64,000 nucleotides of DNA from Escherichia coli 042 (GCF_000027125.1 NC_017626.1); one strand, 5' to 3'. Positions 5,086-50,432 are shown, numbered from the stretch's first letter. Notes: generated by a model not told the origin, from the letters alone. Program-made: numbers and translations.

Positions 5086-5574
5086 ATGTTGGATGTATTT
5101 ACTCCATTGTTGAAACTTTTTGCTAACGAGCCACTCGAAAGACTTATGTATACGATTATCATTTTTGGTCTCACTCTCTGGCTGATACCGAAAGAGTTTA
5201 CTGTCGCATTCAATGCTTATACTGAAATACCTTGGCTCTTTCAGATTATCGTTTTTGCCTTTTCTTTCGTGGTCGCCATTTCCTTCTCAAGATTGCGAGC
5301 ACATATTCAAAAGCATTTTTCATTACTACCAGAGCAACGAGTATTGCTTCGTTTATCTGAGAAAGAAATCGCTGTATTTAAAGATTTCCTTAAAACAGGA
5401 AATCTTATTATCACTTCTCCTTGCCGTAACCCGGTTATGAAAAAATTAGAACGGAAGGGCATCATTCAACATCAGAGTGATAGCGCAAACTGTTCTTATT
5501 ATCTCGTCACCGAAAAATACTCCCATTTTATGAAGTTATTCTGGAACAGCAGGAGTAGACGTTTTAATCGTTAG
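5086..5574 (+). CDS. sieB: Superinfection exclusion protein B (162 aa)
   Basis: Translation MLDVFTPLLKLFANEPLE... with hydrophobic N-terminal segments; divergent from kilR. Confidence 0.85.
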   Translation: MLDVFTPLLKLFANEPLERLMYTIIIFGLTLWLIPKEFTVAFNAYTEIPWLFQIIVFAFSFVVAISFSRLRAHIQKHFSLLPEQRVLLRLSEKEIAVFKDFLKTGNLIITSPCRNPVMKKLERKGIIQHQSDSANCSYYLVTEKYSHFMKLFWNSRSRRFNR

Positions 5575-5726
5575 CTTACTGTGTGCTTCTCCAACCATCG
5601 GCGCGCACCAGTTTCGGTTTTAAATGTTTTGCTTTTTGTATACGTCATCGCGGTGAACGTACCGTCCTGGTTGGGAAACACGCCACACACTATGGATTCG
5701 TTGTTGCCGAGGTCGATTTTTTGCAT
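5571..5726 (-). CDS. ydaF: Rac prophage small protein YdaF (51 aa)
   Basis: Hand translation MQKIDLGNNESIVCGVFPNQDG...; GAGGG RBS; size matches ydaF. Confidence 0.7.
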   Translation of the reverse strand: MQKIDLGNNESIVCGVFPNQDGTFTAMTYTKSKTFKTETGARRWLEKHTVS

Positions 5727-5737
5727 TTTGGGAACCC

Positions 5738-5872
5738 TCACATCTTGTTGTTACGGATAGAGGCTTCTGCCTGCCAGAGATCCCAGTCGTTGCTGCGTAG
5801 AGCCTGTACAGCCTGGCTGTAAGTGATGCCGCAACAATCCATCAAATACTGAACTACTTCGTAATGCACCAT
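5738..5872 (-). CDS. ydaG: Rac prophage small protein YdaG (44 aa)
   Basis: Hand translation MVHYEVVQYLMDCCGITYSQAVQALRSNDWDLWQAEASIRNNKM; size and position match ydaG. Confidence 0.65.
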   Translation of the reverse strand: MVHYEVVQYLMDCCGITYSQAVQALRSNDWDLWQAEASIRNNKM

Positions 5873-6043
5873 CTTATCTCTCCCCTTAACGCCGGGTGGC
5901 GGAACTAACTGCTGCACTGCAAAATTTGAATCCCGCCGTCATGTTCATACGCCTCGGGCTGGCTACTTAACCCCTGACCACTGCCTGGTAACTCGAAGTA
6001 TTGCCCTGCGTTCTGTGGGGCGGGGTGGGTTGGTAGGTATATG

Positions 6044-6085
6044 ATGTACTTTGTGTTCATTGTTGTAAAGTACTTTAAGTACATT
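6044..6085. promoter_or_regulatory. Candidate left operator: inverted ATGTACT/AGTACAT repeats
   Basis: atgtact at 6044-6050 and agtacat at 6078-6084, plus aagtac direct repeat; same heptamer recurs twice between racR and ydaS. Confidence 0.35.
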
Positions 6086-6159
6086 TTGTGTGTAAAAAAA
6101 TGAGATGGGATAAAGTGAAGCACAAACCCGGAGGGGGACGCTACCGGATTTATGCTGGT

Positions 6160-6579
6160 TTAAGAGGCTTTTTGTTTTTTCTTTCGTGCTAACTCTTCGT
6201 AAATTGCATTGTACTTCTGTTTTTTCTCCTCAAGAGTTTTTAAAAGTTCATCTGTCTCACTGTCAGGGAGCTCGTCCAGAAGGTCAATGATGATTTTTTG
6301 TCTTGGATTTAACTCCTGATAGAAACGTACCTGTCCACTTTCTTCTGTATCCTCTCCCAAAAGATAGGTTGGTGTTGTTCCAATGAGTGTTGCTAATTCC
6401 CTTAATTTCTCTCGGCGAGGAATTGTTTCGCCATTAAACCATTTGCTAACCGCTTTTGGTGTTAATTTCATTCGACGGGCAATTTCTGCCTGCCTTCCAT
6501 GTTGTTCATAACCAGCGTTTTCACAGGCTAGCGCAAGCCTACTGGCGAACTCTTTACGCGCTTTATCTTCATGAACCAT
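6160..6579 (-). CDS. racR: Prophage repressor, HTH XRE family (RacR-like), 139 aa
   Basis: HTH motif (QAEIARRMKLTPKAVSKW); divergent from ydaS/ydaT as in Rac. Confidence 0.75.
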   Translation of the reverse strand: MVHEDKARKEFASRLALACENAGYEQHGRQAEIARRMKLTPKAVSKWFNGETIPRREKLRELATLIGTTPTYLLGEDTEESGQVRFYQELNPRQKIIIDLLDELPDSETDELLKTLEEKKQKYNAIYEELARKKKQKAS

Positions 6580-6603
6580 AAGTTCAATGATATTCGCTCT
6601 TGA

Positions 6604-6634
6604 ATGTACTGTCAGTTCTGTTATAGCATGTACT
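6604..6634. promoter_or_regulatory. Candidate right operator/divergent promoter region (ATGTACT x2)
   Basis: atgtact at 6604-6610 and 6628-6634 in the 80-bp racR-ydaS intergenic region. Confidence 0.35.
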
Positions 6635-6658
6635 CAAAGTTCACATTGTGAGGGTGAT

Positions 6659-6913
6659 ATGAACCAGAAAACACTTGAAGATGTAATCAAAACTGTTCGC
6701 GTTTCTGTTGTGGCCGACGTTTGTGGTGTCAGCCAAAGAGCAATCTACAAATGGATGGATAACGGAAAATTGCCTCGCACAGAATATACCGGCGAAACAA
6801 ATTACGCTGAAAAAATCGCTCATGCATCAAACGGATTATTTTCTGCCGATGCAATTTTAACTATTGGCAGAAATAAAACTACTACGAAAAAGCTGATGGG
6901 AGTTGATTCATGA
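6659..6913 (+). CDS. ydaS: Cro-like HTH protein YdaS
   Basis: Translation MNQKTLEDVIKTVRVSVVADVCGVSQRAIYKW; position right of repressor. Start uncertain. Confidence 0.7.
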   Translation: MNQKTLEDVIKTVRVSVVADVCGVSQRAIYKWMDNGKLPRTEYTGETNYAEKIAHASNGLFSADAILTIGRNKTTTKKLMGVDS

Positions 6914-7344: not shown

Positions 7345-8202
7345 ATGCTGTTTGTGCTTATTCTAAGCAACCGGACAGCATCATACGGGGCAATTATGGC
7401 CGCATTACCATACATGCAACTGTACATAGCTGATTACTTGGCTGACACCATGCATTTGTCAGCAGAGGAGCACGGTGCGTATTTGTTGCTGATGTTCAAT
7501 TACTGGCAAACAGGAAAGCCAATACCCAAAAACAGGCTGGCAAAAATTGCCCGTCTGACTAACGAGCGATGGGCTGATGTTGAACCATCCTTGCGGGAGT
7601 TTTTTTGCGATAACGGCGAGGAATGGGTGCATCTTCGGATTGAGGAAGATCTGGCATCAGTCAGGGAAAAATTAACCAAAAAATCAGCCGCAGGAAAAGC
7701 ATCTGTTCAGGCCAGAAGAAGCAGAAAGGAAGCAGATGTTCAAACAAAACAAGAGAGAAATTTAACAGGTGTTCAAACAGATGTTGAAGTGGTGTTTGAA
7801 CATGATGCCAACACAAAGGCAACTAATAAAGATACAGATAAAGATCTAAAAACAGATCCCCCCCTAAATCCCCCCCGGGGGAATCGAGGTGTCAAAAAGT
7901 TTGACCCTCTGGATATTGCTTTGCCGAACTGGATTTCTGTCTCGCTTTGGCGTGAGTGGGTTGAATTTCGCCAGGCATTGCGTAAACCGATTCGAACGGA
8001 GCAGGGCGCTAACGGGGCGATACGGGAGCTGGAAAAATTCCGCCAGCAGGGTTTTTCACCTGAGCAGGTGATTCGACACAGCATCGCCAATGAATACCAA
8101 GGCTTGTTCGCGCCAAAAGGTGTTCTACCTGAGACGTTACTCCGACAGGTTAACACCGTCTCGTTACCGGATAGTGCGATCCCGCCAGGCTTCAGGGGGT
8201 AA
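7345..8202 (+). CDS. ydaU: Replication initiation protein O-like (YdaU), 285 aa
   Basis: 285-aa ORF, same length as K-12 YdaU; precedes DnaC-like gene. Confidence 0.75.
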   Translation: MLFVLILSNRTASYGAIMAALPYMQLYIADYLADTMHLSAEEHGAYLLLMFNYWQTGKPIPKNRLAKIARLTNERWADVEPSLREFFCDNGEEWVHLRIEEDLASVREKLTKKSAAGKASVQARRSRKEADVQTKQERNLTGVQTDVEVVFEHDANTKATNKDTDKDLKTDPPLNPPRGNRGVKKFDPLDIALPNWISVSLWREWVEFRQALRKPIRTEQGANGAIRELEKFRQQGFSPEQVIRHSIANEYQGLFAPKGVLPETLLRQVNTVSLPDSAIPPGFRG

Positions 8203-8208
8203 CTGACC

Positions 8209-8955
8209 ATGAAAAATATTGCGGCAGGCGGCATTCTTGAACGTATCCGCAGACTGGCCCCGCCACATGTAACCGCCCCATTCAAAACGGTAGCGGAGTG
8301 GCGCGAGTGGCAACTTTCCGAAGGCCAGAAACGTTGTGAGGAGATCAACCGTCAGAATCGTCAGTTGCGGGTGGAAAAAATTCTGAATCGCTCTGGCATC
8401 CAGCCATTGCACCGCAAATGCTCGTTTGCGAATTACCAGGTGCAGAACGACGGTCAGCGATACGCGTTGAACCAGGCGAAATCTATCGCTGATGAACTGA
8501 TGACCGGGTGTACAAATTTTGCGTTCAGCGGAAAACCTGGTACCGGAAAAAACCATCTGGCGGCGGCTATCGGGAATCGCCTGCTGAAAGATGGCCAGAC
8601 AGTGATTGTGGTTACCGTGGCTGATGTCATGAGTGCTCTACACGCCAGCTATGACGACGGGCAATCAGGCGAAAAATTTTTGCGGGAACTGTGCCAAGTG
8701 GATCTGCTGGTTCTTGATGAAATTGGCATTCAGCGCGAGACAAAAAACGAGCAGGTGGTGCTGCACCAGATTGTTGATCGCCGGACAGCGTCGATGCGCA
8801 GCGTGGGGATGCTGACAAACCTGAACTATGAGGCCATGAAAACATTGCTCGGCGAGCGGATTATGGATCGCATGACCATGAACGGCGGGCGATGGGTGAA
8901 TTTTAACTGGGAGAGCTGGCGTCCGAATGTCGTCCAGCCAGGAATTGCGAAGTGA
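8209..8955 (+). CDS. ydaV: DnaC-like helicase loader (YdaV), 248 aa
   Basis: Walker [14 protein letters not shown], Walker B LLVLDEIG. Confidence 0.85.
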
Positions 8956-8977
8956 TTTTTACCGGGAGGAAATTTTA

Positions 8978-9739
8978 ATGGAAACCGTTTTTGATGCACT
9001 GAAAGCAATGGGAAAAGCCACGTCGGTAGAACTGGCTGCGCGACTTGATATCAGTCGTGAAGAAGTGCTGAACGAGCTGTGGGAACTTAAAAAGGCTGGC
9101 TTCGTTGATAAAAGCGTATACACCTGGCGTGTGGCTGATAACAACGTTCAGCAGGAACAGCCAGAGCAGGCAGAACTGCCGGAAGAAACCACCACGGCAA
9201 CAGTAGCGAAAATCTCAGAGTGCGATTTAACCGCGACGATTGAACAACGTGGCCCACAAACGGCGGATGAACTGGCTACGTTTTTCGGCACCACATCACG
9301 CAAAGTGGCTTCAACGCTGGCAATGGCAATCAGCAAAGGCCGTCTGATTCGCGTTAATCAGAACGGTAAATTTCGTTACTGCATGCCGGGCGATGATTTA
9401 CCAGCAGAGCCGAAAGCTGCATCGGTAACGGAAACTGATGGTAAAGCCTTTCCTCAACCAGCAGGTGTTGCGTTACCGGGACAGGAAGCTGCAACACAGG
9501 AAGATATTAAAACAGAAACTGTGGCGGACATTGTGCAGTCGTTGCCATCGTTTACCGAAACGCGAGCGGATGACCTCGTTCTGCCATCGCTGCATATGGC
9601 AAACCGCGAACTGCGTCGGGCGAAAAATCATGTCCAGAAGTGGGAACGTGTCTGCGCCGCGCTGCGGGAGCTGAACAAGCACCGGGATATTGTTCGACAG
9701 ATTACTGATTCTTCTCGCTGTGTTGCATCGGAAAAGTGA
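8978..9739 (+). CDS. Phage hypothetical protein (YdaW-like), 253 aa
   Basis: ORF with strong RBS GGGAGGA before ATG at 8978; function unknown. Confidence 0.55.
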
Positions 9740-9754
9740 TTGCCGGAGGCGCTT

Positions 9755-10171
9755 ATGGCAAAAGTATTTACACAAGAAGAGCGGGAAAAAATCAAGGGAC
9801 AGGTTGTTGAGCTAGTACGCCGGAGTGGGCGCGAGACGTTACGGCAACTGGAAGCCAAGACAGGTGCGACAAGATATCTGATGAGCGTTCTCGCCAGAGA
9901 GCTGGTTGCCAGTGGCGATGTATACAACTCTGGCTACGGGTTATTCCCGTCTGAACAGGCTCGTAAGGACTGGCAAAATGCCCGCAAAAAACTATCTAGG
10001 GCAAAGGTGAAGAAACCATCTGTGGTTGATCCGGACCTTATCTGGTCATTACCTGACGGAGAAATACGTCGTTATGACAGGCACCAAAACATAATTTGCT
10101 GTGAGTGCCGGAAGAGCGAAGTTATGCAGCGCATACTGGCATTTTATCAGAGAAATTTTCGTTATTTATAG
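9755..10171 (+). CDS. Phage hypothetical protein, 138 aa
   Basis: ORF with GGAGG RBS; C-terminal Cys pair (CCEC). Confidence 0.5.
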   Translation: MAKVFTQEEREKIKGQVVELVRRSGRETLRQLEAKTGATRYLMSVLARELVASGDVYNSGYGLFPSEQARKDWQNARKKLSRAKVKKPSVVDPDLIWSLPDGEIRRYDRHQNIICCECRKSEVMQRILAFYQRNFRYL

Positions 10172-10334
10172 ACGTTACTCGATTAAAGAGCATTAGTTCA
10201 GATGTGAATTGACATTTTCACGGCACAGGATTGAGCTAGCGTGGTTGTCTGCTTTGTGTCAAAAGCAGATATTACCAGATTTAGACATCTATTCCCGATA
10301 GCCCTGCTCTGATGCTACACTCTGTGCTATTTTC

Positions 10335-11021
10335 ATGACCCCAATAAAAATATTTATGACTATTGCTGATTTCAAACGGCCTAAATTGGAGCTCCCAAAC
10401 GGGGCAAACAAACTACTACTGCACTCTTGCTGTGCTCCATGTTCCGGTGAAGTGATGGAGGCGCTTCAGGCCTCGGGAATCGACTATACCATCTTTTTCT
10501 ACAACCCGAACATTCATCCTCAGAAAGAGTATTTAATTCGTAAGGATGAGAATATTCGCTTTGCTGAACAACACGGCGTGCCATTTATTGATGCTGATTA
10601 CGACACAGACAACTGGTTTGAACGTGCCAAAGGAATGGAATGGGAGCCCGAGAGGGGGATCCGTTGTACCATGTGTTTTGACATGCGTTTTGAGCGGACA
10701 GCGCTGTACGCTGCTGAAAATGGTTTCAGTGTGATCAGCAGTTCACTGGGCATTTCACGCTGGAAAAATATGCAGCAGGTTAACGACTGTGGGCGGCGAG
10801 CCGTCGCGCATTATCCGGGCATGGTGTACTGGGATTATAACTGGCGCAAGCAGGGCGGCTCGTCCCGCATGATTGAAATCAGCAAGCGCGAAAAATTCTA
10901 TCAGCAGGAATATTGTGGCTGTGTGTATTCTCTGCGCGATACCAATCTACACCGCAAATCTCAGGGACGCCCTCTTATCAAAATTGGTCAACTCCACTAC
11001 GGTAAAGAAGAGAAGGAGTGA
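10335..11021 (+). CDS. DUF208/QueH-like Fe-S protein (epoxyqueuosine reductase family)
   Basis: N-terminal [21 protein letters not shown] and C-terminal YCGCVYSL motifs typical of QueH. Start codon uncertain (10335 or 10356). Confidence 0.65.
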
Positions 11022-11201
11022 TTTTATGGAGCACCTTTCTTATTGATTTCATATTGGCGAGGTAGCGGGAGTTAAGTAAAATTGCTGCGGGTGCTTGAGG
11101 CTATCTGCCTCAGGCATGAACACCAAAAGGCAGATAGAGAAAAGCCCCAGTTAACATTACGCGTCCTGCAAGACGCTTAACATTAATCTGAGGCTCAATC
11201 T

Positions 11202-11414
11202 ATGCTGAACACATGTAGGTTAGCCTCTTACGTGCCGAAAGGCAAGGAGAAGCAGGCTATGAAGCAGCAAAAGGCGATGTTAATCGCCCTGATCGTCATC
11301 TGTTTAACCGTCATAGTGACGGCACTGGTAACGAGGAAAGACCTCTGCGAGGTACGAATCCGAACCGGGCAGACGGAGGTCGCTGTCTTCACAGCTTACG
11401 AACCTGAGGAGTAA
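11202..11414 (+). CDS. mok: mok-like overlapping reading frame (translational coupling to hok)
   Basis: 70-aa frame that contains the hok ORF in-frame, as in hok/mok loci. Confidence 0.5.
   Translation: MLNTCRLASYVPKGKEKQAMKQQKAMLIALIVICLTVIVTALVTRKDLCEVRIRTGQTEVAVFTAYEPEE
11259..11414 (+). CDS. hok: Hok/Gef family membrane toxin (51 aa)
   Basis: MKQQKAMLIALIVICLTVIVTALVTRKDLCEVRIRTGQTEVAVFTAYEPEE: Hok-family TM helix plus conserved C..E..R. Confidence 0.85.
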   Translation: MKQQKAMLIALIVICLTVIVTALVTRKDLCEVRIRTGQTEVAVFTAYEPEE

Positions 11415-11880
11415 GAGACCGGGCGAGGGAGAAATCCCTCGCCACCTCTGATGTATTATGCATCCTCAACGCACCCACACTTAACCAGTTTTGGCGAGTT
11501 TATTTTATCTGTAAATATTTTTATAAAAATAATGCCCACGCACAGCATAAAACAAAAAGTATTACAGATAAAAAAGGAGCGTAATGTGCAGATTTGTTGT
11601 TTTCCATATTTACTCACCTTAATATGATTGATCTTGATAGGATTGTTATTTCAGTGGTTTTCAAATGAGATATTATGGTGATCTGGTAGATTTGCATAAC
11701 ATTAAAATTTAATTTGTTTAACCGCTTTTAATAATAAGCGTTGTTTTTATCCCGGCAATCTGTTGTTTGGTTTTTATTCCATTAAGGTGGGGACTTTACA
11801 CTGGAGCCAGTTTATTTATACTTCATACGTCAGCCTGAACAACTGGCATCTGCTGCACTGCGCCATCGAGAGATTGAGAA

Positions 11881-12480
11881 ATGGCGCATATACAACTGGT
11901 CAAACAAACTTCTTCTGGTTTACTTCTCCCGGCGACGCCGGAGAGTTGCGATTTTCTGCATCAAATCAAAATAGGTGAGTGGATACACGCAGACTTTAAG
12001 CGTGTGCGTAACTACGCATTCCACAAGCGTTTTTTCAAACTCCTGCAACTGGGATTCGATTACTGGACTCCGGTCGGTGGGGCGATCACACCTCGCGAAC
12101 GAGAAATGGTGTTCGGCTTCGTTGATTACCTGTGTGAATCAGTAGGCAGGGAACATACGCCAGCTCTGAGTGATGCCGCGGAACAATATCTGAATACCGT
12201 TGCGACACGCAGAACCCGGGATATGGCATTGCTCAAATCATTTGACGCTTTCCGCGAGTGGGTAACCATTCAGGCCGGATTTTACACCGAGCATTTTTAT
12301 CCTGATGGTAGTCGTGGGCGTCGGGCGAAATCCATCGCGTTTGCGAATATGGACGAAACCGAGTTTCAGCAGGTTTATAAATCTGTACTGAATGTGCTGT
12401 GGAACTGGATTCTGTTCCGTAAATTTTCCTCTCCGGAACAAGTCGAAAATGTGGCCGCGCAGCTACTGGAGTTTGCGTAA
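11881..12480 (+). CDS. Phage nin-region protein of unknown function, 199 aa
   Basis: ORF immediately upstream of and abutting the YbcO-like gene. Confidence 0.55.
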   Translation: MAHIQLVKQTSSGLLLPATPESCDFLHQIKIGEWIHADFKRVRNYAFHKRFFKLLQLGFDYWTPVGGAITPREREMVFGFVDYLCESVGREHTPALSDAAEQYLNTVATRRTRDMALLKSFDAFREWVTIQAGFYTEHFYPDGSRGRRAKSIAFANMDETEFQQVYKSVLNVLWNWILFRKFSSPEQVENVAAQLLEFA

Positions 12481-12770
12481 TGGTGGATTTACGTAAAGCG
12501 GCGCGGGGCCAGATGTGCCAGGTCAGAATCCCTGGCTACTGCAATCACAATCCCGAAACTTCTGTGCTGGCGCATTACAGGTTGGCAGGGACGTGCGGAA
12601 CAGCGACAAAACCACACGATATGCAGGCAGCGATTGCCTGTAACTCATGCCACGATTTAATCGACGGGCGGGTAAAAACCAGCGATTACACCAAAGAAGA
12701 ATTACGCCTGATGCATGCAGAAGGTGTTTTTCGCACGCAAGAAATCTGGAGAAAGGAAGGTTATTTATGA
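12480..12770 (+). CDS. YbcO-like DUF1364 phage protein (putative nuclease), 96 aa
   Basis: Conserved Cys pattern (CQVRIPGYCN...CNSCHD) as in DLP12 YbcO. Confidence 0.7.
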   Translation: MVDLRKAARGQMCQVRIPGYCNHNPETSVLAHYRLAGTCGTATKPHDMQAAIACNSCHDLIDGRVKTSDYTKEELRLMHAEGVFRTQEIWRKEGYL

Positions 12771-13303
12771 TTTACCCAACAAATACAGGCAAAAGCGGGG
12801 AACACCTTCGTCTCACCACGCTGGAAAGTGTCTGGATTCAGGGAAAACTGCGCATGTGGGGGCGCTGGTCGTATATTGGCGGCGGTAAGACGGGGAATAT
12901 GTTTAACCAGTTGCTGGCGTCAAAAAAATTGACGAAAACAGCCATCAATGAAGCCCTGCGCAGAATGAAAAAAGCGGGAATAGAGAAAGCTGAGCTGGAA
13001 GCGTTTTTGCGAGAGATGATCAACGGCAAGCAAAAGAGCTGGCTGGCGCATTGTACTGATGCAGAGGCACTAAAAATTGATAGTGTTATAGGTGAAGTTC
13101 TGGCGGATCATCCAGGACTACTAAATGTCCTGAGTCAGCGTTATGTGGGGCGAGGGATGAGTAAGAGAAGGATGGCCGAGTTATTAAACGAACAGTACCC
13201 AGAGTGGGCGTTGATTACATGCCGACGTCGTGTTGATCAGTGGTTGCGTGTTGCTGAGTTCATTTTGTATTCACCTATGAGAGAAGCGTTCGATTATGCT
13301 TAA
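12767..13303 (+). CDS. Late-gene antiterminator Q-like protein, 178 aa
   Basis: Position (last gene before tRNAs and lysis cassette), overlap with upstream gene, RBS GAAAGGAAGG; family assignment from memory only. Confidence 0.55.
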   Translation: MIYPTNTGKSGEHLRLTTLESVWIQGKLRMWGRWSYIGGGKTGNMFNQLLASKKLTKTAINEALRRMKKAGIEKAELEAFLREMINGKQKSWLAHCTDAEALKIDSVIGEVLADHPGLLNVLSQRYVGRGMSKRRMAELLNEQYPEWALITCRRRVDQWLRVAEFILYSPMREAFDYA

Positions 13304-13665: not shown

Positions 13666-13741
<76 letters not shown>

Positions 13742-13744
13742 TAT

Positions 13745-13819
<75 letters not shown>

Positions 13820-15769: not shown

Positions 15770-15906
15770 AATCTTAACTACAATATGATTCATTTTGATG
15801 ATTGTTTCATAAGGAACAGTGAAGTAAGATCTAAGATGAGTTAAATTTTATACAGTATAATCATAATGTTGCAGCAAGGTGGTTATAATTGAAAGAATAT
15901 TTAGAT

Positions 15907-17364
15907 ATGAATACATCTCATGTAAGAGTTGTTACTCATATGTGTGGGTTCCTGGTTTGGCTCTATAGTCTTTCAATGTTGCCACCAATGGTTGTAGCAT
16001 TGTTTTATAAAGAAAAAAGCCTGTTCGTTTTCTTTATAACTTTCGTTATATTTTTTTGCATTGGTGGCGGAGCGTGGTATACAACTAAGAAATCTGGTAT
16101 TCAATTACGTACCCGTGATGGGTTTATTATAATTGTAATGTTTTGGATTTTGTTTTCTGTTATTAGTGCATTCCCTTTATGGATTGACTCAGAACTTAAT
16201 TTAACGTTTATTGATGCTCTATTTGAAGGGGTTTCTGGAATAACAACAACAGGAGCAACTGTAATTGATGATGTTAGTTCATTACCTCGGGCATATTTGT
16301 ACTATCGGTCACAGTTAAATTTTATAGGTGGCTTAGGAGTTATTGTTCTGGCGGTTGCTGTATTGCCATTATTGGGTATTGGTGGTGCAAAGCTTTATCA
16401 GTCAGAAATGCCAGGGCCATTTAAGGATGACAAACTTACTCCCCGCCTGGCCGATACGTCACGGACACTTTGGATAACTTATTCTTTATTAGGTATTGCT
16501 TGTATTGTCTGTTATAGACTTGCAGGAATGCCTTTGTTTGATGCTATTTGTCACGGGATATCCACAGTTTCGCTTGGTGGTTTCTCAACTCATAGCGAGA
16601 GTATCGGATATTTTAATAACTATTTGGTTGAGCTGGTGGCTGGTTCTTTTTCCCTGCTATCGGCTTTCAACTTCACCCTTTGGTATATTGTTATTAGCAG
16701 GAAAACGTTAAAACCTTTAATCAGAGATATTGAACTTCGTTTCTTTCTGTTAATAGCCTTAGGGGTGATCATTGTTACCTCTTTCCAGGTCTGGCATATA
16801 GGTATGTATGACTTGCCTGGAAGTTTTATTCATTCGTTTTTTCTTGCCAGCTCCATGCTCACTGATAATGGTTTAGCTACGCAGGATTACGCAAACTGGC
16901 CCACGCACACGATAGTGTTTTTGCTGTTGTCAAGTTTCTTTGGGGGATGTATAGGTTCAACTTGTGGTGGAATTAAGTCACTTCGATTTCTTATACTTTT
17001 CAAACAAAGCAAACACGAGATAAACCAGCTTTCTCATCCCAGAGCGTTGTTGAGTGTAAATGTAGGAGGGAAGATAGTTACAGATCGTGTAATGAGGTCT
17101 GTATGGAGTTTCTTTTTTCTTTATACTCTCTTCACGGTGTTTTTTATACTGGTGTTAAATGGTATGGGATATGATTTTCTTACATCATTTGCAACAGTGG
17201 CTGCATGTATTAATAATATGGGATTAGGTTTTGGGGCTACTGCATCGTCATTCGGAGTGCTTAATGACATTGCAAAATATTTAATGTGCATAGCTATGAT
17301 TCTTGGTCGCCTTGAAATTTATCCTGTTATTATATTGTTTTCAGGTTTTTTTTGGCGCTCCTAA
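15907..17364 (+). CDS. trkG: Potassium uptake protein TrkG (485 aa)
   Basis: Polytopic membrane protein matching TrkG/TrkH; AT-rich relative to flanks. Confidence 0.85.
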   Translation: MNTSHVRVVTHMCGFLVWLYSLSMLPPMVVALFYKEKSLFVFFITFVIFFCIGGGAWYTTKKSGIQLRTRDGFIIIVMFWILFSVISAFPLWIDSELNLTFIDALFEGVSGITTTGATVIDDVSSLPRAYLYYRSQLNFIGGLGVIVLAVAVLPLLGIGGAKLYQSEMPGPFKDDKLTPRLADTSRTLWITYSLLGIACIVCYRLAGMPLFDAICHGISTVSLGGFSTHSESIGYFNNYLVELVAGSFSLLSAFNFTLWYIVISRKTLKPLIRDIELRFFLLIALGVIIVTSFQVWHIGMYDLPGSFIHSFFLASSMLTDNGLATQDYANWPTHTIVFLLLSSFFGGCIGSTCGGIKSLRFLILFKQSKHEINQLSHPRALLSVNVGGKIVTDRVMRSVWSFFFLYTLFTVFFILVLNGMGYDFLTSFATVAACINNMGLGFGATASSFGVLNDIAKYLMCIAMILGRLEIYPVIILFSGFFWRS

Positions 17365-44323: not shown

Positions 44324-45181
44324 CTAATTGGGTGATGACAAATCCTGTGTATGGGTGTTTCCCTTTGTGCGTGCGTTGATGCTGGTAACGGTGAACGTCA
44401 TGATGAACACAACCGCGAATAAGACGACAATCGTCGGAGCTGGTGCACTGTCGATAAAAAAGGACAACCAGACACCAGTCATTGACACTATTACCGATAT
44501 GCCAATCGCCAGTAGGAGCGCAATATGAAAGCGTTGTGTCAGGAGTACCGCAATGGCGCCAGGCGCAATGAGCAGAGAAATGGAGAGAATGATACCTACC
44601 GCTTTCAGCGTCGCCACAATGGTCAGAGAGACCATGCACAGCAGCCCATAATGCAGACATCTCGTATGCAAACCGCTTACCTGCGCCTGTTGATAATCAA
44701 AGCTGAACAGCAAAAAATCCCGCCATTTTACGCTAATAACAAGTGTAACCAACCCGGCAATAATCACCGTCTGGATTATATCGCCGATGGTTACCCCGAG
44801 CATGTCGCCGAAAAGAATATGGTCAAGATGTACGTCTGGTTTGACTGCAATATACAAGATCAGACCTGCGGCAAACATGCCAGAAAAAACAATCCCCATC
44901 ACTGTATCTTGCTTGATTCGGCTGTTGTCTTTCAGGTATCCCGTCGCCACCGCGCAGAATACTCCGGCGACGAATGCCCCTGTAGCCAGAGGTAACCCCA
45001 GAATCCAGGCAAGCACGATGCCAGGAAAAACCGCATGACTCATCGCGTCACCCATCAGTGCCCAACCTTTCAGGACCAGAAAGACCGACAGCAGCGCACA
45101 GGGTATGGAAACTACCAGTGAAATCAGCAGTGCGTGACTCATAAAGGTGAACTGCAGTGGCTCCAGTAATAATGCCATCAT
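44324..45181 (-). CDS. sitD: Mn/Fe ABC transporter permease SitD
   Basis: Polytopic permease; operon order sitABCD. Confidence 0.9.
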   Translation of the reverse strand: MMALLLEPLQFTFMSHALLISLVVSIPCALLSVFLVLKGWALMGDAMSHAVFPGIVLAWILGLPLATGAFVAGVFCAVATGYLKDNSRIKQDTVMGIVFSGMFAAGLILYIAVKPDVHLDHILFGDMLGVTIGDIIQTVIIAGLVTLVISVKWRDFLLFSFDYQQAQVSGLHTRCLHYGLLCMVSLTIVATLKAVGIILSISLLIAPGAIAVLLTQRFHIALLLAIGISVIVSMTGVWLSFFIDSAPAPTIVVLFAVVFIMTFTVTSINARTKGNTHTQDLSSPN

Positions 45182-46035
45182 GAGCGATCCTCCAGCGCTT
45201 TATGCGCACGCCGACGATTTGCCAAAAGCCCATGGGTGGGCGCAAATACAAATGCTAAAAGAAACAGCAGTGTCTGCGCCACCACGATGATTCCACCTGT
45301 CGCGCCGTCCAGAAAGTAACTGACCCACGCGCCGAGGAAACTGGTTACACTGCCAATAGTTACAGCAATTATGAGCAGGCGGGGAAAATGATCGGTTAAC
45401 AACCATGCTGTTGCACCGGGAGTCACCACCAGACAGATCACCAGAAAGGCACCAACCGTTTGCAGCGCCGCAACGGTCGAAACCGACAGCAGGGTGAAGA
45501 AGAGGATTTTTAATCTGCCCGGATGCAATCCAATAGCACGAGCGTGATTCTCGTCGAAAAAGGTCACCATAAGATCTTTCCATTTGAAAAAAAGCACGAT
45601 GATCGAGAGAATGCCAATGATAGTGAGTTGCAGGATATCCGCCGGATCGATTGCCAGAATATTGCCCAGGACGATGGTCTGAATGTTCACGGATGTCGGG
45701 TTCAATGACACCATAAACAGCCCCAGGCCAAAAAAGGAGGAGAAGATCAGGCCGATGATGGCATCTTCTTTTAAGCGAGTGCGTTGGTTAAGAAACAGCA
45801 TGCTGCCCGCTGCCAGTCCGCCGGAAAAGAAGGCTCCCAGAGAAAACGGAAGCCCCAGCATATATGCCCCCGCAACACCCGGGACAATAGAGTGCGACAG
45901 CGCATCGCCAATCAGCGACCAGCCTTTTAGCATCAGATAGCATGACAGGAAAGCGCAGAGACCGCCGACCATCGCCGAGACCCACATCGCATTGAGCATA
46001 TATTCATAGCTGAAGGGTTCCAGTAGCACGTTCAT
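45178..46035 (-). CDS. sitC: Mn/Fe ABC transporter permease SitC
   Basis: Polytopic permease paralogous to SitD. Confidence 0.9.
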
Positions 46036-46859
46036 CTTGCTTCCCCCTGCACCGCTGACGGTCGATGTGCCACAAAAGGGTGTTCATCGTCAGTAATAAT
46101 GCTTTCTTCCGAGCCGTTAAGTGTGACATGGCGCAGTACGCCGCTAAAAGCCAGCTCCAGGTTCTCGGCTGTAAAAGTGGTGTCTGTCGGCCCGCTTGCC
46201 AGGACGGTGCCTTTGACCATGACCGTATAATCGCAAAATGTCGTGACTGAGCCGAGATTGTGCGTTGAGACAAGCATCGTCTTGCCTTCCGCGCGTAACT
46301 CCCTCAACAGGCTGATGATTTTCGCTTCGGTTTTCACATCAACGCCGGTAAAAGGTTCATCCAGCAGGATCACATCACCCTGCTGTGCAATCGCTCTCGC
46401 CAGAAAGACGCGTTTCTTTTGTCCACCGGAAAGCTCGCCGATTTGTCGATGGCGAAAATCCACCATATCGACACGTTCCAGCGCATCGGTGACAATCTGA
46501 CGATCCCTCTTTTTGGCTATACGCAACATACCCATGTGCCCATAGCGGCCCATCATCACCACATCTTCCACTAGTACAGGAAATGACCAGTCAACCTCTT
46601 CTGACTGAGGGACGTAGGCAACCAGGTTTTTCTGTAGCGCCTGTCGCGTGGGAATACCCAGAACAGATATCTTTCCGCTGGTCAGACGGACAAATCCCAT
46701 AATCGCTTTAAACAACGTCGATTTTCCGGAACCGTTTACCCCAACCAGAGCGGCAATAGATCCACTTGGTACTGTGAAGGATGCATCGCGCAGTGCTGTG
46801 TGCCCGTTACGCCAGGTGACAGTAACATCATTAACGACAATGCCCGCAGATTGCATCAT
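46032..46859 (-). CDS. sitB: Mn/Fe ABC transporter ATP-binding protein SitB
   Basis: Walker [13 protein letters not shown] signature LSGGQKKR, Walker B ILLDEP. Confidence 0.9.
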
Positions 46860-47773
46860 TATTTCTCCCTTTTCCCGGCTTTAATTCCCTGTACCAGCGT
46901 ACTGGTAGTAACCTTCAGAAGGTCGATATACGTAGGTACCGGGCCGTTTTCTGTGCTCAGGGAATCGACATAGAGTACACCGCCGTAGTGCGCGCCGGTT
47001 TCACGCGCAACCTGACGCGCTGGTTTATCGGAAATCGTACTCTCGCTAAAGACTGCCGGGATATGATTTTTCTTCACCATATCAACAACCTTACGTACCT
47101 GCTGCGGCGTGCCTTGTTGATCGGCATTAATCGGCCACAGATAAAGCTCTTTTAGCCCCAAATCGCGTGCGAGATAAGAAAAAGCCCCTTCACTGGTGAC
47201 CATCCATCGCTGATTCTCAGGGAGTTCAGCAATCTGCTTACGCAGGGGGGCAAGGGTTTGGGTAATCTTGGCTTTATAAGTATCGGCATTACGTTGGTAG
47301 GTTTGTGCATTTGCCGGATCGTATTTTATCAACGCATCACGAATATTATCGACATAAATCAGAGCATTATCTGGCGACATCCAGGCATGGGGGTTAGGTT
47401 TGCCCTCATAGGGTCCTTCGGTGATCCCTACTGGCGTCACACCCGAAGAGACAATTACTTCTGGAACCCCATTGAGATGTTGGTAAAAGCGTTGGAACCA
47501 CAATTCCAGATTCATACCATTGGCGAGAATCAGTTGTGCCCCCTGCGCACGTTTAATATCTCCAGGGGTAGGCTGATACTCATGAATTTCTGCACCAGGC
47601 TTGGTTATGGATGAGACTTCTGCAGCATCTCCAGCCACGTTTTTGGCCATATCCGCGATGATGGTAAATGTTGTAATGACCTTGAATTTTTCAGTTGCAC
47701 TTGCCTGAAATGCGATCGAGCAGGTGAGGGCGAGGCACCCCAAGAGCATGGTTACTTTTTTTATTGAGTGCAT
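46859..47773 (-). CDS. sitA: Periplasmic metal-binding protein SitA
   Basis: Signal peptide; cluster-9 substrate-binding protein family. Confidence 0.9.
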
Positions 47774-48933: not shown

Positions 48934-50067
48934 TTAGAACTGATAAACCAGACCTAAAGCGACAATATCATCGGTAGAGATGCCGTTGGCAGCGTAGAAG
49001 CTGTCATCTTCATCCAACAGGTTGATTTTATAGTCAACATAGGTGGACATGTTTTTATTGAAATAGTAAGTCGCGCCAACATCGGCGTATTTAACCAGAT
49101 CTTTATCATCAACACCTGCCGGGTTGTCTGCACCACCGGCAGCGTGCAGGTCACGGCCTTTAGACATCAGGAAAGAGACTGCCGGACGCAGACCAAAATC
49201 AAACTGGTACTGTGCAGTAACTTCAAAGTTCTGGGTTTTGTTTGCAACAGCATAATCGCTGTCGCCAAACGGGGTCATATTACGCGTTTCTGAATACATG
49301 GTTGCCAGGTAAATATTGTTAGCATCGTATTTTAGCCCAGCAGTCCACGCGTCTGCTTTATCACCACCCGCCGCAGTATGGTTAACCTGGTCATTGGTGC
49401 GGTCAGAAGAGGTGTATGCCGCACCAGCGCTAAAGCCCATGCCTAAATCATATGTTGTGGAAAGACCCCAGCCGTCACCGTTTTCATGGCGAACATCACG
49501 TCCGTTGTTGGTGCCTTCCTGACCATTACTGGCACCTTCGTTGTTACCTTGATACTGCACCGCGAAGTTCAGACCATTTACCAGACCGAAGAAATCAGTA
49601 TTACGATAAGTCGCGACGCCATTGGCACGACCAGTCATAAAGTTGTCTGCATTGGTATAAGAGTCACCGCCAAATTCAGGCAGCATATCGGTCCAGCCTT
49701 CGATGTCGTACATTACGCCATAATTACGTCCGTAATCGAAAGAACCGTAATCTGCAAATTTCAATCCGGCAAATGCCAGACGGGTCCATGACTGGTTTTT
49801 TGAGGATTCAGTGTTGTTTGCCTGAATATTGTATTCCCATTGACCGTAGCCAGTGAGTTGATCGTTAATTTGCGTTTCGCCTTTAAAACCCAGACGCGCA
49901 TAGCTCTGGTCGCCATCTTTCGCTGAATTATCAGAAAAATAATGCAGGCCATCAACTTTGCCATACAGATCTAATTTGTTGCCGTCTTTATTATAAACTT
50001 CGGCTGCATGTGCAGCACCTGCGGCGAGCAGGGCAGGAATTAAAAGTGCCAGTACTTTGCTTTTCAT
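48934..50067 (-). CDS. ompN: Outer membrane porin OmpN
   Basis: Signal peptide; OmpC-family porin ending in F. Confidence 0.9.
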
Positions 50068-50294
50068 TGAATAAATCCTTTAGTTATTTTATTTGCCTTT
50101 TATCCCCATTTCGGGGAGTGAAAACATCCTAAAGGAGATGTTCAGTTAGCCGATAAATATCATTTGTTACGCCTTAAGTAAAACCTTAATCAAATAATTC
50201 TTCTGAAATGATAATAAGTCTGGTGAATGTATTGGAGATAATACATACAAAATAAAAATTATACTTTTAATTTGCTATACGTTATTCTGCGCGG

Positions 50295-50403
50295 GTTATA
50301 TGCCTTTATTGTCACAGATTTTATTTTCTGTTGGGCCATTGCATTGCCACTGATTTTCCAACATATAAAAAGACAAGCCCGAACAGTCGTTCGGGCTTTT
50401 TTT
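50295..50403 (+). ncRNA. micC: MicC small regulatory RNA
   Basis: Sequence GTTATATGCCTTTATTGTCACAG... ending in gcccgaac...gttcgggc + T-run; between ompN and ydbK. Confidence 0.85.
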
Positions 50404-50432
50404 TAGAATTGGATAATTCTTATCCAGAGCAT

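Follow-up and report, generated by a model that had tools for sequence, protein, structure and literature searches.

A predicted cobalamin-independent epoxyqueuosine reductase, QueH, carried as accessory cargo by a Rac-like prophage of Escherichia coli 042

The question raised by this locus is why a prophage of Escherichia coli should carry a gene for the last step of queuosine (Q) formation in a host that already has an enzyme for it. E. coli has no de novo synthesis of vitamin B12, and its QueG enzyme needs cobalamin and two [4Fe-4S] clusters. Queuosine influences how Asp, Asn, His and Tyr codons are decoded, and phenotypes of metal stress, biofilm and virulence have been connected with it; the physiological difference between tRNA carrying epoxyqueuosine (oQ) and tRNA carrying Q is poorly defined. 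Zallot and colleagues reportedly showed in 2017 that other genes of the DUF208 family convert oQ-tRNA to Q-tRNA. The reduction of oQ by QueG is cobamide-dependent in E. coli (Frey et al. 1988, as cited in PMC4646009), and QueH is the cobamide-independent alternative to QueG (PMC6461909; PMC9508795). The reading favored by the sequence and model comparisons described below is that the prophage gene would encode an active, cobalamin-independent QueH, carried as cargo, which would probably let lysogens finish Q without B12. A probability of about 0.6 was assigned to this reading as a whole.

The window, i.e. the whole stretch of 64,000 nucleotides of the E. coli 042 sequence (NC_017626.1) that was analyzed, contains an intact 228-aa ORF at 10335..11021 on the + strand, and all four motifs that the original prediction had named as QueH hallmarks (HSCCAPC, YNPNIHP, RCTMC and YCGCVYS) are present in it. 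The ORF exists as it was first described, but its start had probably been placed too far upstream. Comparison with related alleles and orthologues indicates that translation most likely begins at the second in-frame ATG (10356), which yields a protein of 221 aa, and that the in-frame ATG at 10335, 21 nt 5' of it, is probably unused. The downstream start is preferred because the RefSeq CDS begins there in identical and near-identical prophages, because the equivalent Met opens the chromosomal QueH orthologues, and because in one allele (L082) a 1-nt insertion between the two ATGs puts the upstream one out of frame. The coding sequence is given as:

10356..11021, + strand: queH coding sequence, 221 aa plus stop (PF02677, RefSeq start, orthologue starts)

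Membership of the gene product in the QueH/DUF208 Fe-S family, the class to which it had been assigned from its motifs, is supported by the agreement of a profile match, invariant cysteines and a predicted fold. The Pfam profile PF02677 (QueH, formerly DUF208) matched residues 27-201 of the 228-aa ORF over positions 1-174 of its 175, and a match with E=2.3e-65 over nearly the full model is not attributable to chance. T. maritima QueH (PDB 7lc5) matched the prophage protein with E=5e-22, and PHROG 3217, annotated as 'unknown function', with E=2e-138. No NCBIfam model matched the protein, so that the curated NCBI models lend the name no independent support. The identification as QueH is not new in itself, since RefSeq/PGAP and UniRef already call the protein 'epoxyqueuosine reductase QueH'.

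A search of 1.84 billion proteins returned 4754 matches at E<=0.001, and the family alignment comprised 30 diverse representatives that were 35-73% identical to the query. Seven cysteines (C25, C26, C29, C104, C107, C187 and C189 in the 221-aa numbering), which form the CCxxC, RCxxC and CGC motifs of the prophage QueH, were invariant across these 30 representatives, as were N52, E58, R62, E99, R103, R111, K137 and Q184. The three cysteine motifs were taken as the set for an Fe-S cluster and an adjacent metal. An AlphaFold2 model built from the family alignment had a mean pLDDT of 95.7 and a pTM of 0.91, and Foldseek superimposed this predicted model on 7lc5 with a TM-score of 0.92 (target-normalised) and an rmsd of 1.3 A over 179 columns. 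The next-best folds, TtuA-type and other PP-loop-like enzymes, were much weaker matches, with E values of ~1e-4.

To our knowledge, the QueH of T. maritima is the only one with a solved structure. It (PDB 7lc5, 7lc7, 9deu) belongs to the same Pfam family as the prophage protein and has CC, RCxxC, CGC, FFYNPNI and YxQxYCGC in common with it, but the two are only ~30% identical. T. maritima QueH has Asp13 (PDB entry 9dco is a 'D13N mutant') where the prophage protein and 30 of 30 representatives have Cys. Because this Cys is invariant among the representatives, CCAPC is the norm in the family and the T. maritima CCAPD is the exception. The prophage protein is also longer, by ~18 residues at the N-terminus and ~20 at the C-terminus, and its close orthologues have these extensions too.

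The gene was identical to copies in E. coli APEC O1 and many further strains, and the window from ~6900 to 33350 was 98-99% identical to the Rac-like prophage that adjoins ttcA in E. coli strain 190. The gene order in the latter prophage was intR, xisR, ralR, recT, recE, kilR, sieB, racR, ydaS, ydaT, ydaU, ydaV, DUF1627, DUF977, queH, hokD, DUF1367, DUF1364, DUF1133, tRNA-Thr, tRNA-Gly, the lysis genes and trkG, followed by terminase, head and tail genes. Annotation, an Rfam match to sok and the ORFs confirmed the proposed location of the gene in a prophage, between replication-type genes and DUF1367/DUF1364/DUF1133 and beside hok/mok. The replication-type genes (ydaU/ydaV, DUF1627 and DUF977) lie upstream of queH and sok/hok lies immediately downstream. 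The genes on either side were:

9755..10171, + strand: DUF977 family gene, conserved left flank (ORF; near-identical prophage L098, 21556-21972, offset 11801)
11089..11414, + strand: sok/mok/hok type I toxin-antitoxin module, conserved right flank (Rfam, ORF, annotation)

In other prophages the DUF977 gene occurs with or without queH. Within the right-hand module, Rfam sok RF01794 was found at 11089-11264 with 119.6 bits, a mok-like ORF spans 11202-11414, and hokD is annotated at the equivalent of 11259-11414. The module is not part of the QueH function.

Other features of the window were recorded along with this comparison. Two tRNA genes, tRNA-Thr(TGT) at 13666-13741 (+) and tRNA-Gly(TCC) at 13745-13819 (+), lie just upstream of the lysis cassette, and neither of these two tRNAs carries queuosine. 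Just past the lysis genes, at ~15900-17360 (+), the prophage contains trkG, a potassium transporter gene that is known as cargo and has the same placement in K-12 Rac. Between the tail-fibre end of the prophage and uspF, four genes at 44324-47773 (-) resemble an accessory island adjoining the prophage; they code for a SitABCD-like Mn/Fe ABC transporter, for which the manganese/iron ABC ATPase PRK15056 was the best match (E=7e-178). The MicC sRNA, at 50292-50412 (+) with 127.5 bits, adjoins an OmpN/OmpC-like porin gene at 48934-50067 (-), and both show that the DNA on the right-hand side of the prophage is host chromosome. The Rac-like prophages of strain 190 and APEC O1, although 95-99% identical elsewhere, have no match to positions 1-2094 and ~6035-6904; these stretches are mosaic replacements, located in the early-left region (recE side) and the immunity region.

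The same annotation bears on the substrate of the enzyme. It had been suggested that QueH might act on another 7-deazaguanine compound; a modified DNA base or a free nucleoside, in place of oQ-tRNA, would be examples. Phages do use 7-deazaguanine chemistry in DNA (PMC6884629), and the N- and C-terminal extensions are missing from the T. maritima enzyme; the chromosomal orthologues, however, have the same extensions. No DpdA/Tgt-like or preQ0-synthesis genes (FolE, QueC/D/E) were annotated in the strain 190 prophage, over the stretch that runs from the integrase gene to the tape measure gene, and spot checks of ORFs to the right of the tail region in the window found no 7-deazaguanine genes, the genes there being those for the SitABCD-like transporter, UspF and the OmpN-like porin. 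Phage DNA-modification sets, in which DpdA occurs with FolE, QueD, QueE and QueC, resemble the prophage locus in being phage-borne genes of the queuosine/archaeosine pathways, but they make preQ0-derived bases for phage DNA, whereas queH is a lone, late-pathway, tRNA-specific gene without DpdA. A survey of viral 7-deazaguanine genes found no homologues of QueA, QueG or QueH, i.e. no Q-specific genes, in the viruses analyzed (Hutinet et al. 2019, PMC6884629). The suggestion was not borne out by these results, and a substrate other than oQ-tRNA is considered extremely improbable.

Positions 8200 to 13300 of the window were searched against 5426 complete E. coli genomes. Homology on the left flank ended at ~10269-10274 and homology on the right flank resumed at 11024; both flanks were widespread, and the content between them varied. 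Across the complete genomes this survey found the slot empty, filled with other cargo or filled with queH. The slot is empty in T7Express/BL21. In one prophage (L004) it holds an AbiH abortive-infection gene (PADLOC E=1.6e-27) and a 462-aa ORF, and in another (L005) a 689-aa Sll1717-type P-loop ATPase that matched the candidate defence family PDC-M36A in PADLOC. Further cargo, identified by annotation, included KilA-N, DUF4209, DUF7167 and methyltransferase genes. The junction between DUF977 and hok, at 10172-11088 of the window, is thus a hotspot for cargo among the lambdoid prophages of E. coli, and defence genes are part of that cargo.

The DNA next to queH varied as well. Different DNA flanks the gene in L002, L006 and L016, and in phage HannyBb and strain 19KM1831 the remnant of a methyltransferase gene precedes queH, which lies 375 bp from hok. 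In 17 of 80 IMG/VR loci a different sequence precedes queH and homology to the window begins exactly at 10285, which is also the leftmost point of homology common to all queH-bearing loci. This break indicates a mobile unit of ~10285-11027, consisting of the ORF and ~70 nt upstream, and no partner gene was found in the queH cassette in the loci compared. In one prophage group an inserted 137-aa ORF, at 5419-5832 (+) of L016, separates queH from the DUF977 gene; this ORF had no PADLOC match.

These results show that queH is dispensable accessory cargo, which Rac-like and other lambdoid prophages carry in a slot of varying content. Its description as a moron holds in part. Like lambdoid morons and the cargo of similar hotspots, queH is a dispensable insertion at a module boundary, between conserved flanks, with varied alternatives and presence/absence polymorphism. 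Unlike a classic moron, it has no terminator of its own downstream and its base composition is not atypical (GC of 0.485, against 0.483 for the window).

The gene was found in 994 of the 5426 complete genomes (18%), and 1013 of its 1016 copies were chromosomal. In one of the three 'plasmid' copies, queH again occupied the slot between DUF977 and hok. The replicon concerned, pNR3838_1 (NZ_AP040233.1, 94.5 kb), is annotated as a plasmid and has a lambdoid, Stx-phage-like gene set that includes dicB, a cI-like repressor, Q, a DNA methyltransferase, tRNA-Ile/Arg, a holin and a SASA family carbohydrate esterase, which is presumably NanS-p-like.

Close relatives of queH were present on at least 163 viral contigs in IMG/VR. 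At the DNA level one isolated phage in INPHARED, the temperate HannyBb, has queH, in the same early-region position. Protein-level matches in INPHARED were rejected as phage evidence, since most were short fragments of faecal origin, without annotation and labelled 'Bacteriophage sp.'. Two records named 'Acinetobacter phage MD-2021a' were likewise rejected, their neighbourhood resembling a bacterial chromosome; in one of them (CAKLQH020000001.1, 328 kb) soxR, cynX, tadA and LysR-family genes surround the QueH homologue, and the record looks like a mislabelled bacterial contig.

Two elements lie upstream of queH:

10285..10355, + strand: conserved 5' region with a candidate native promoter, which always travels with queH
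10242..10277, + strand: stable hairpin at the slot's left-hand junction (RNA fold of 10236-10290)

An extended -10-like motif, TGCTACACT, at 10313-10321 lies 34 nt before the start codon and was invariant in 15 of 15 distinct upstream variants. In Erwinia and Enterobacter a similar sequence, TGCTAC(A/C)CT, precedes the start codon of the chromosomal queH by 31-34 nt. This conservation suggests that queH probably brought its own weak extended -10 promoter, here a candidate element, and makes autonomous expression plausible. A simple scan for the sigma-70 consensus called no promoter upstream of queH, TGCTACACT included, and a terminator scan called none from 11021 as far as the promoter region of hok, with its closest calls at 11723 and 11932. 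With neither a sigma-70 call upstream nor a terminator directly downstream, expression in the lysogen is something that we infer.

The RNA fold of 10236-10290 had an energy of -18 kcal/mol (z=-3.5), and none of 200 shuffled sequences was as stable. The hairpin coincides with a mosaic boundary, since homology to prophages with other cargo ends at 10269-10274 and homology to the queH cassette elsewhere begins at 10240-10242. It is not a canonical intrinsic terminator, because no U-run follows it, and it could attenuate transcription that runs on from the genes before it. No cobalamin or preQ1 riboswitch or other Rfam element was found beside queH, at gathering or permissive thresholds, in the window and in five chromosomal queH orthologue loci, so that nothing regulatory ties the gene to B12; a B12 riboswitch would have counted strongly in favor of such a tie.

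It is possible that queH, which has the same orientation as the early rightward operon, might be expressed only on induction. According to one such explanation, QueH serves the phage: transcription with the early operon after induction would convert oQ to Q during lytic growth, tuning the decoding of NAU/NAC codons in phage genes or altering the host stress response. The gene is co-oriented with and directly downstream of ydaS-ydaT-ydaU-ydaV-DUF1627-DUF977, with no canonical terminator between, and its position in HannyBb is consistent with such a role. However, the stable hairpin and the conserved promoter-like motif part queH from the upstream operon, we know of no difference in decoding between oQ and Q, and many sister prophages have no queH, or have unrelated cargo in the slot, which indicates that the phage cycle does not need the gene. 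The oQ-to-Q step is regulated during phage infection in Shewanella, where infection shifts the Q/oQ ratio through induction of queG (bioRxiv 10.64898/2026.03.05.709803), and this too would fit a role in the phage cycle. Taking these points together, a benefit to the phage seems unlikely as the explanation for queH.

The gene could also be a neutral hitch-hiker, i.e. a captured host gene without function that is spread by recombination of lambdoid modules. QueG is encoded in 5425 of the 5426 complete E. coli genomes, so that every queH carrier also has QueG and the pair is redundant; only the 18% of genomes noted above carry queH, and its GC content equals that of the prophage, all of which would be expected of a passenger. 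Sequence evolution argues against this. None of 82 phage and prophage copies that were retrieved was disrupted, and their 20 nucleotide alleles encode six proteins. Relative to the window allele, dN/dS was 0.02-0.07; as many as 26 synonymous changes stood against 6-7 non-synonymous ones. The gene has been retained in at least three different lambdoid backbones. The prophage alleles are under strong purifying selection, and the low dN/dS together with the lack of disrupted copies argues against a decaying passenger, which makes neutrality very improbable.

Among the chromosomal QueH proteins compared, that of Enterobacter was 88% identical in amino-acid sequence to the prophage copy, and those of Erwinia, Providencia, Photorhabdus, Pantoea and Lysobacter were ~80-86% identical. 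The gammaproteobacterial QueH clade is unusually conserved, as seen in the ~80% identity between the E. coli prophage and Lysobacter enzymogenes (CP117873.1). Chromosomal QueH proteins of Enterobacter (e.g. WP_223540464.1), Erwinia, Pantoea, Providencia and Photorhabdus, with identities of 80-88%, have the same length, start and basic C-terminal tail as the prophage protein. They are encoded by single genes in non-phage neighbourhoods, whereas the E. coli copy lies in a prophage cargo slot. The chromosomal gene is beside tmcA/purC in Providencia, between glmY and glrK in an Erwinia-like genome, next to an mgtA-like ATPase gene in Pantoea and downstream of an acetyltransferase gene in Enterobacter, and in Lysobacter it overlaps an upstream metabolic operon. 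At the nucleotide level the prophage gene was only 72-78% identical to the chromosomal copies. Together with its prophage-like GC content, this indicates that capture from any of the sampled lineages was not recent.

QueG (E. coli b4166) catalyzes the same reaction on the same tRNAs (PMC4646009; PMC9508795) and is present in the same cells, but it is not homologous to QueH (PF13484/PF08331 versus PF02677) and is a core gene product, whereas queH is accessory. A QueH in a host with QueG had been considered unexpected, but the co-occurrence is less unusual than supposed: a single 4,241,285-bp Pantoea chromosome encodes both enzymes, and Enterobacter ludwigii has both. Replacement of QueG by QueH in genera with chromosomal QueH was rejected for Pantoea and Enterobacter, in which QueG is present. 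Judged by gene content, the pair of QueG and QueH is normal in several Enterobacterales, and E. coli obtains it through a prophage.

The cargo found in the slot also raises the possibility of a role in defence or counter-defence, in conflicts between phage and host or between bacteria. For example, QueH might change the wobble base of tRNAs with GUN anticodons, and thereby how readily anticodon nucleases cleave them, or it might act on a superinfecting phage. The AbiH and PDC-M36A genes occupy the same slot in other prophages, sieB, ralR and hok are nearby, and in Shewanella the Q status is tied to the evolution of phage resistance (bioRxiv 10.64898/2026.03.05.709803). On the other hand, PADLOC matched QueH to no family at E<=0.01, the cassette has no partner gene, and the nearest relatives are the single chromosomal genes in housekeeping neighbourhoods (tmcA/purC; glmY-glrK). 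A conflict role is considered decidedly improbable.

The reading preferred here remains that of an active QueH carried for the lysogen. In the proposed mechanism, the prophage QueH, as an Fe-S enzyme that works without cobalamin, would reduce oQ34 to Q34 in the four tRNAs with GUN anticodons, tRNA-Asp, -Asn, -His and -Tyr. Because E. coli does not synthesize B12 and QueG is cobamide-dependent, a queH lysogen should complete Q whatever the corrinoid supply, and the prophage gene would give E. coli the same enzyme pair as the Pantoea and Enterobacter chromosomes. Activity of the enzyme in E. coli, its expression in the lysogen and an advantage when B12 is limiting are what we infer from the comparisons; the enzymatic part is likelier than the explanation as a whole, which is weakest where it invokes a physiological benefit and expression in lysogens.

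A broader and more speculative proposal, which we consider unlikely, is that temperate lambdoid phages spread a tRNA-modification enzyme as a lysogenic-conversion gene. Freed from the corrinoid supply, the oQ-to-Q step would then change the wobble-base chemistry of the hosts where B12 is scarce, for instance amid competition in the gut, or in btuB-deficient cells that are resistant to phages or colicins. If this were true, effects would be expected on fitness, on translation of codons decoded by GUN anticodons, or on later attack by phages or colicins; queH would be the first phage-borne tRNA-modification function specific to Q, and the choice between oQ and Q would be under selection.

Searches of 7.7 million open-access papers and of bioRxiv yielded no description of a QueH borne by a phage or prophage. 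What is new is a genuine QueH in a mobile prophage context, and what was already known is the enzyme family, the reaction and the gene name, so that the present analysis adds context and not a new mechanism. The prophage queH reveals no new chemistry and no new type of system, and it corrects the published impression of viruses without Q-specific genes.

In conclusion, about one in five complete E. coli genomes carries a prophage-borne gene for a predicted B12-independent enzyme for the last step of Q formation. Purifying selection on so widespread a gene suggests that the difference between oQ and Q matters in nature, and natural strains with and without queH make this question directly testable.
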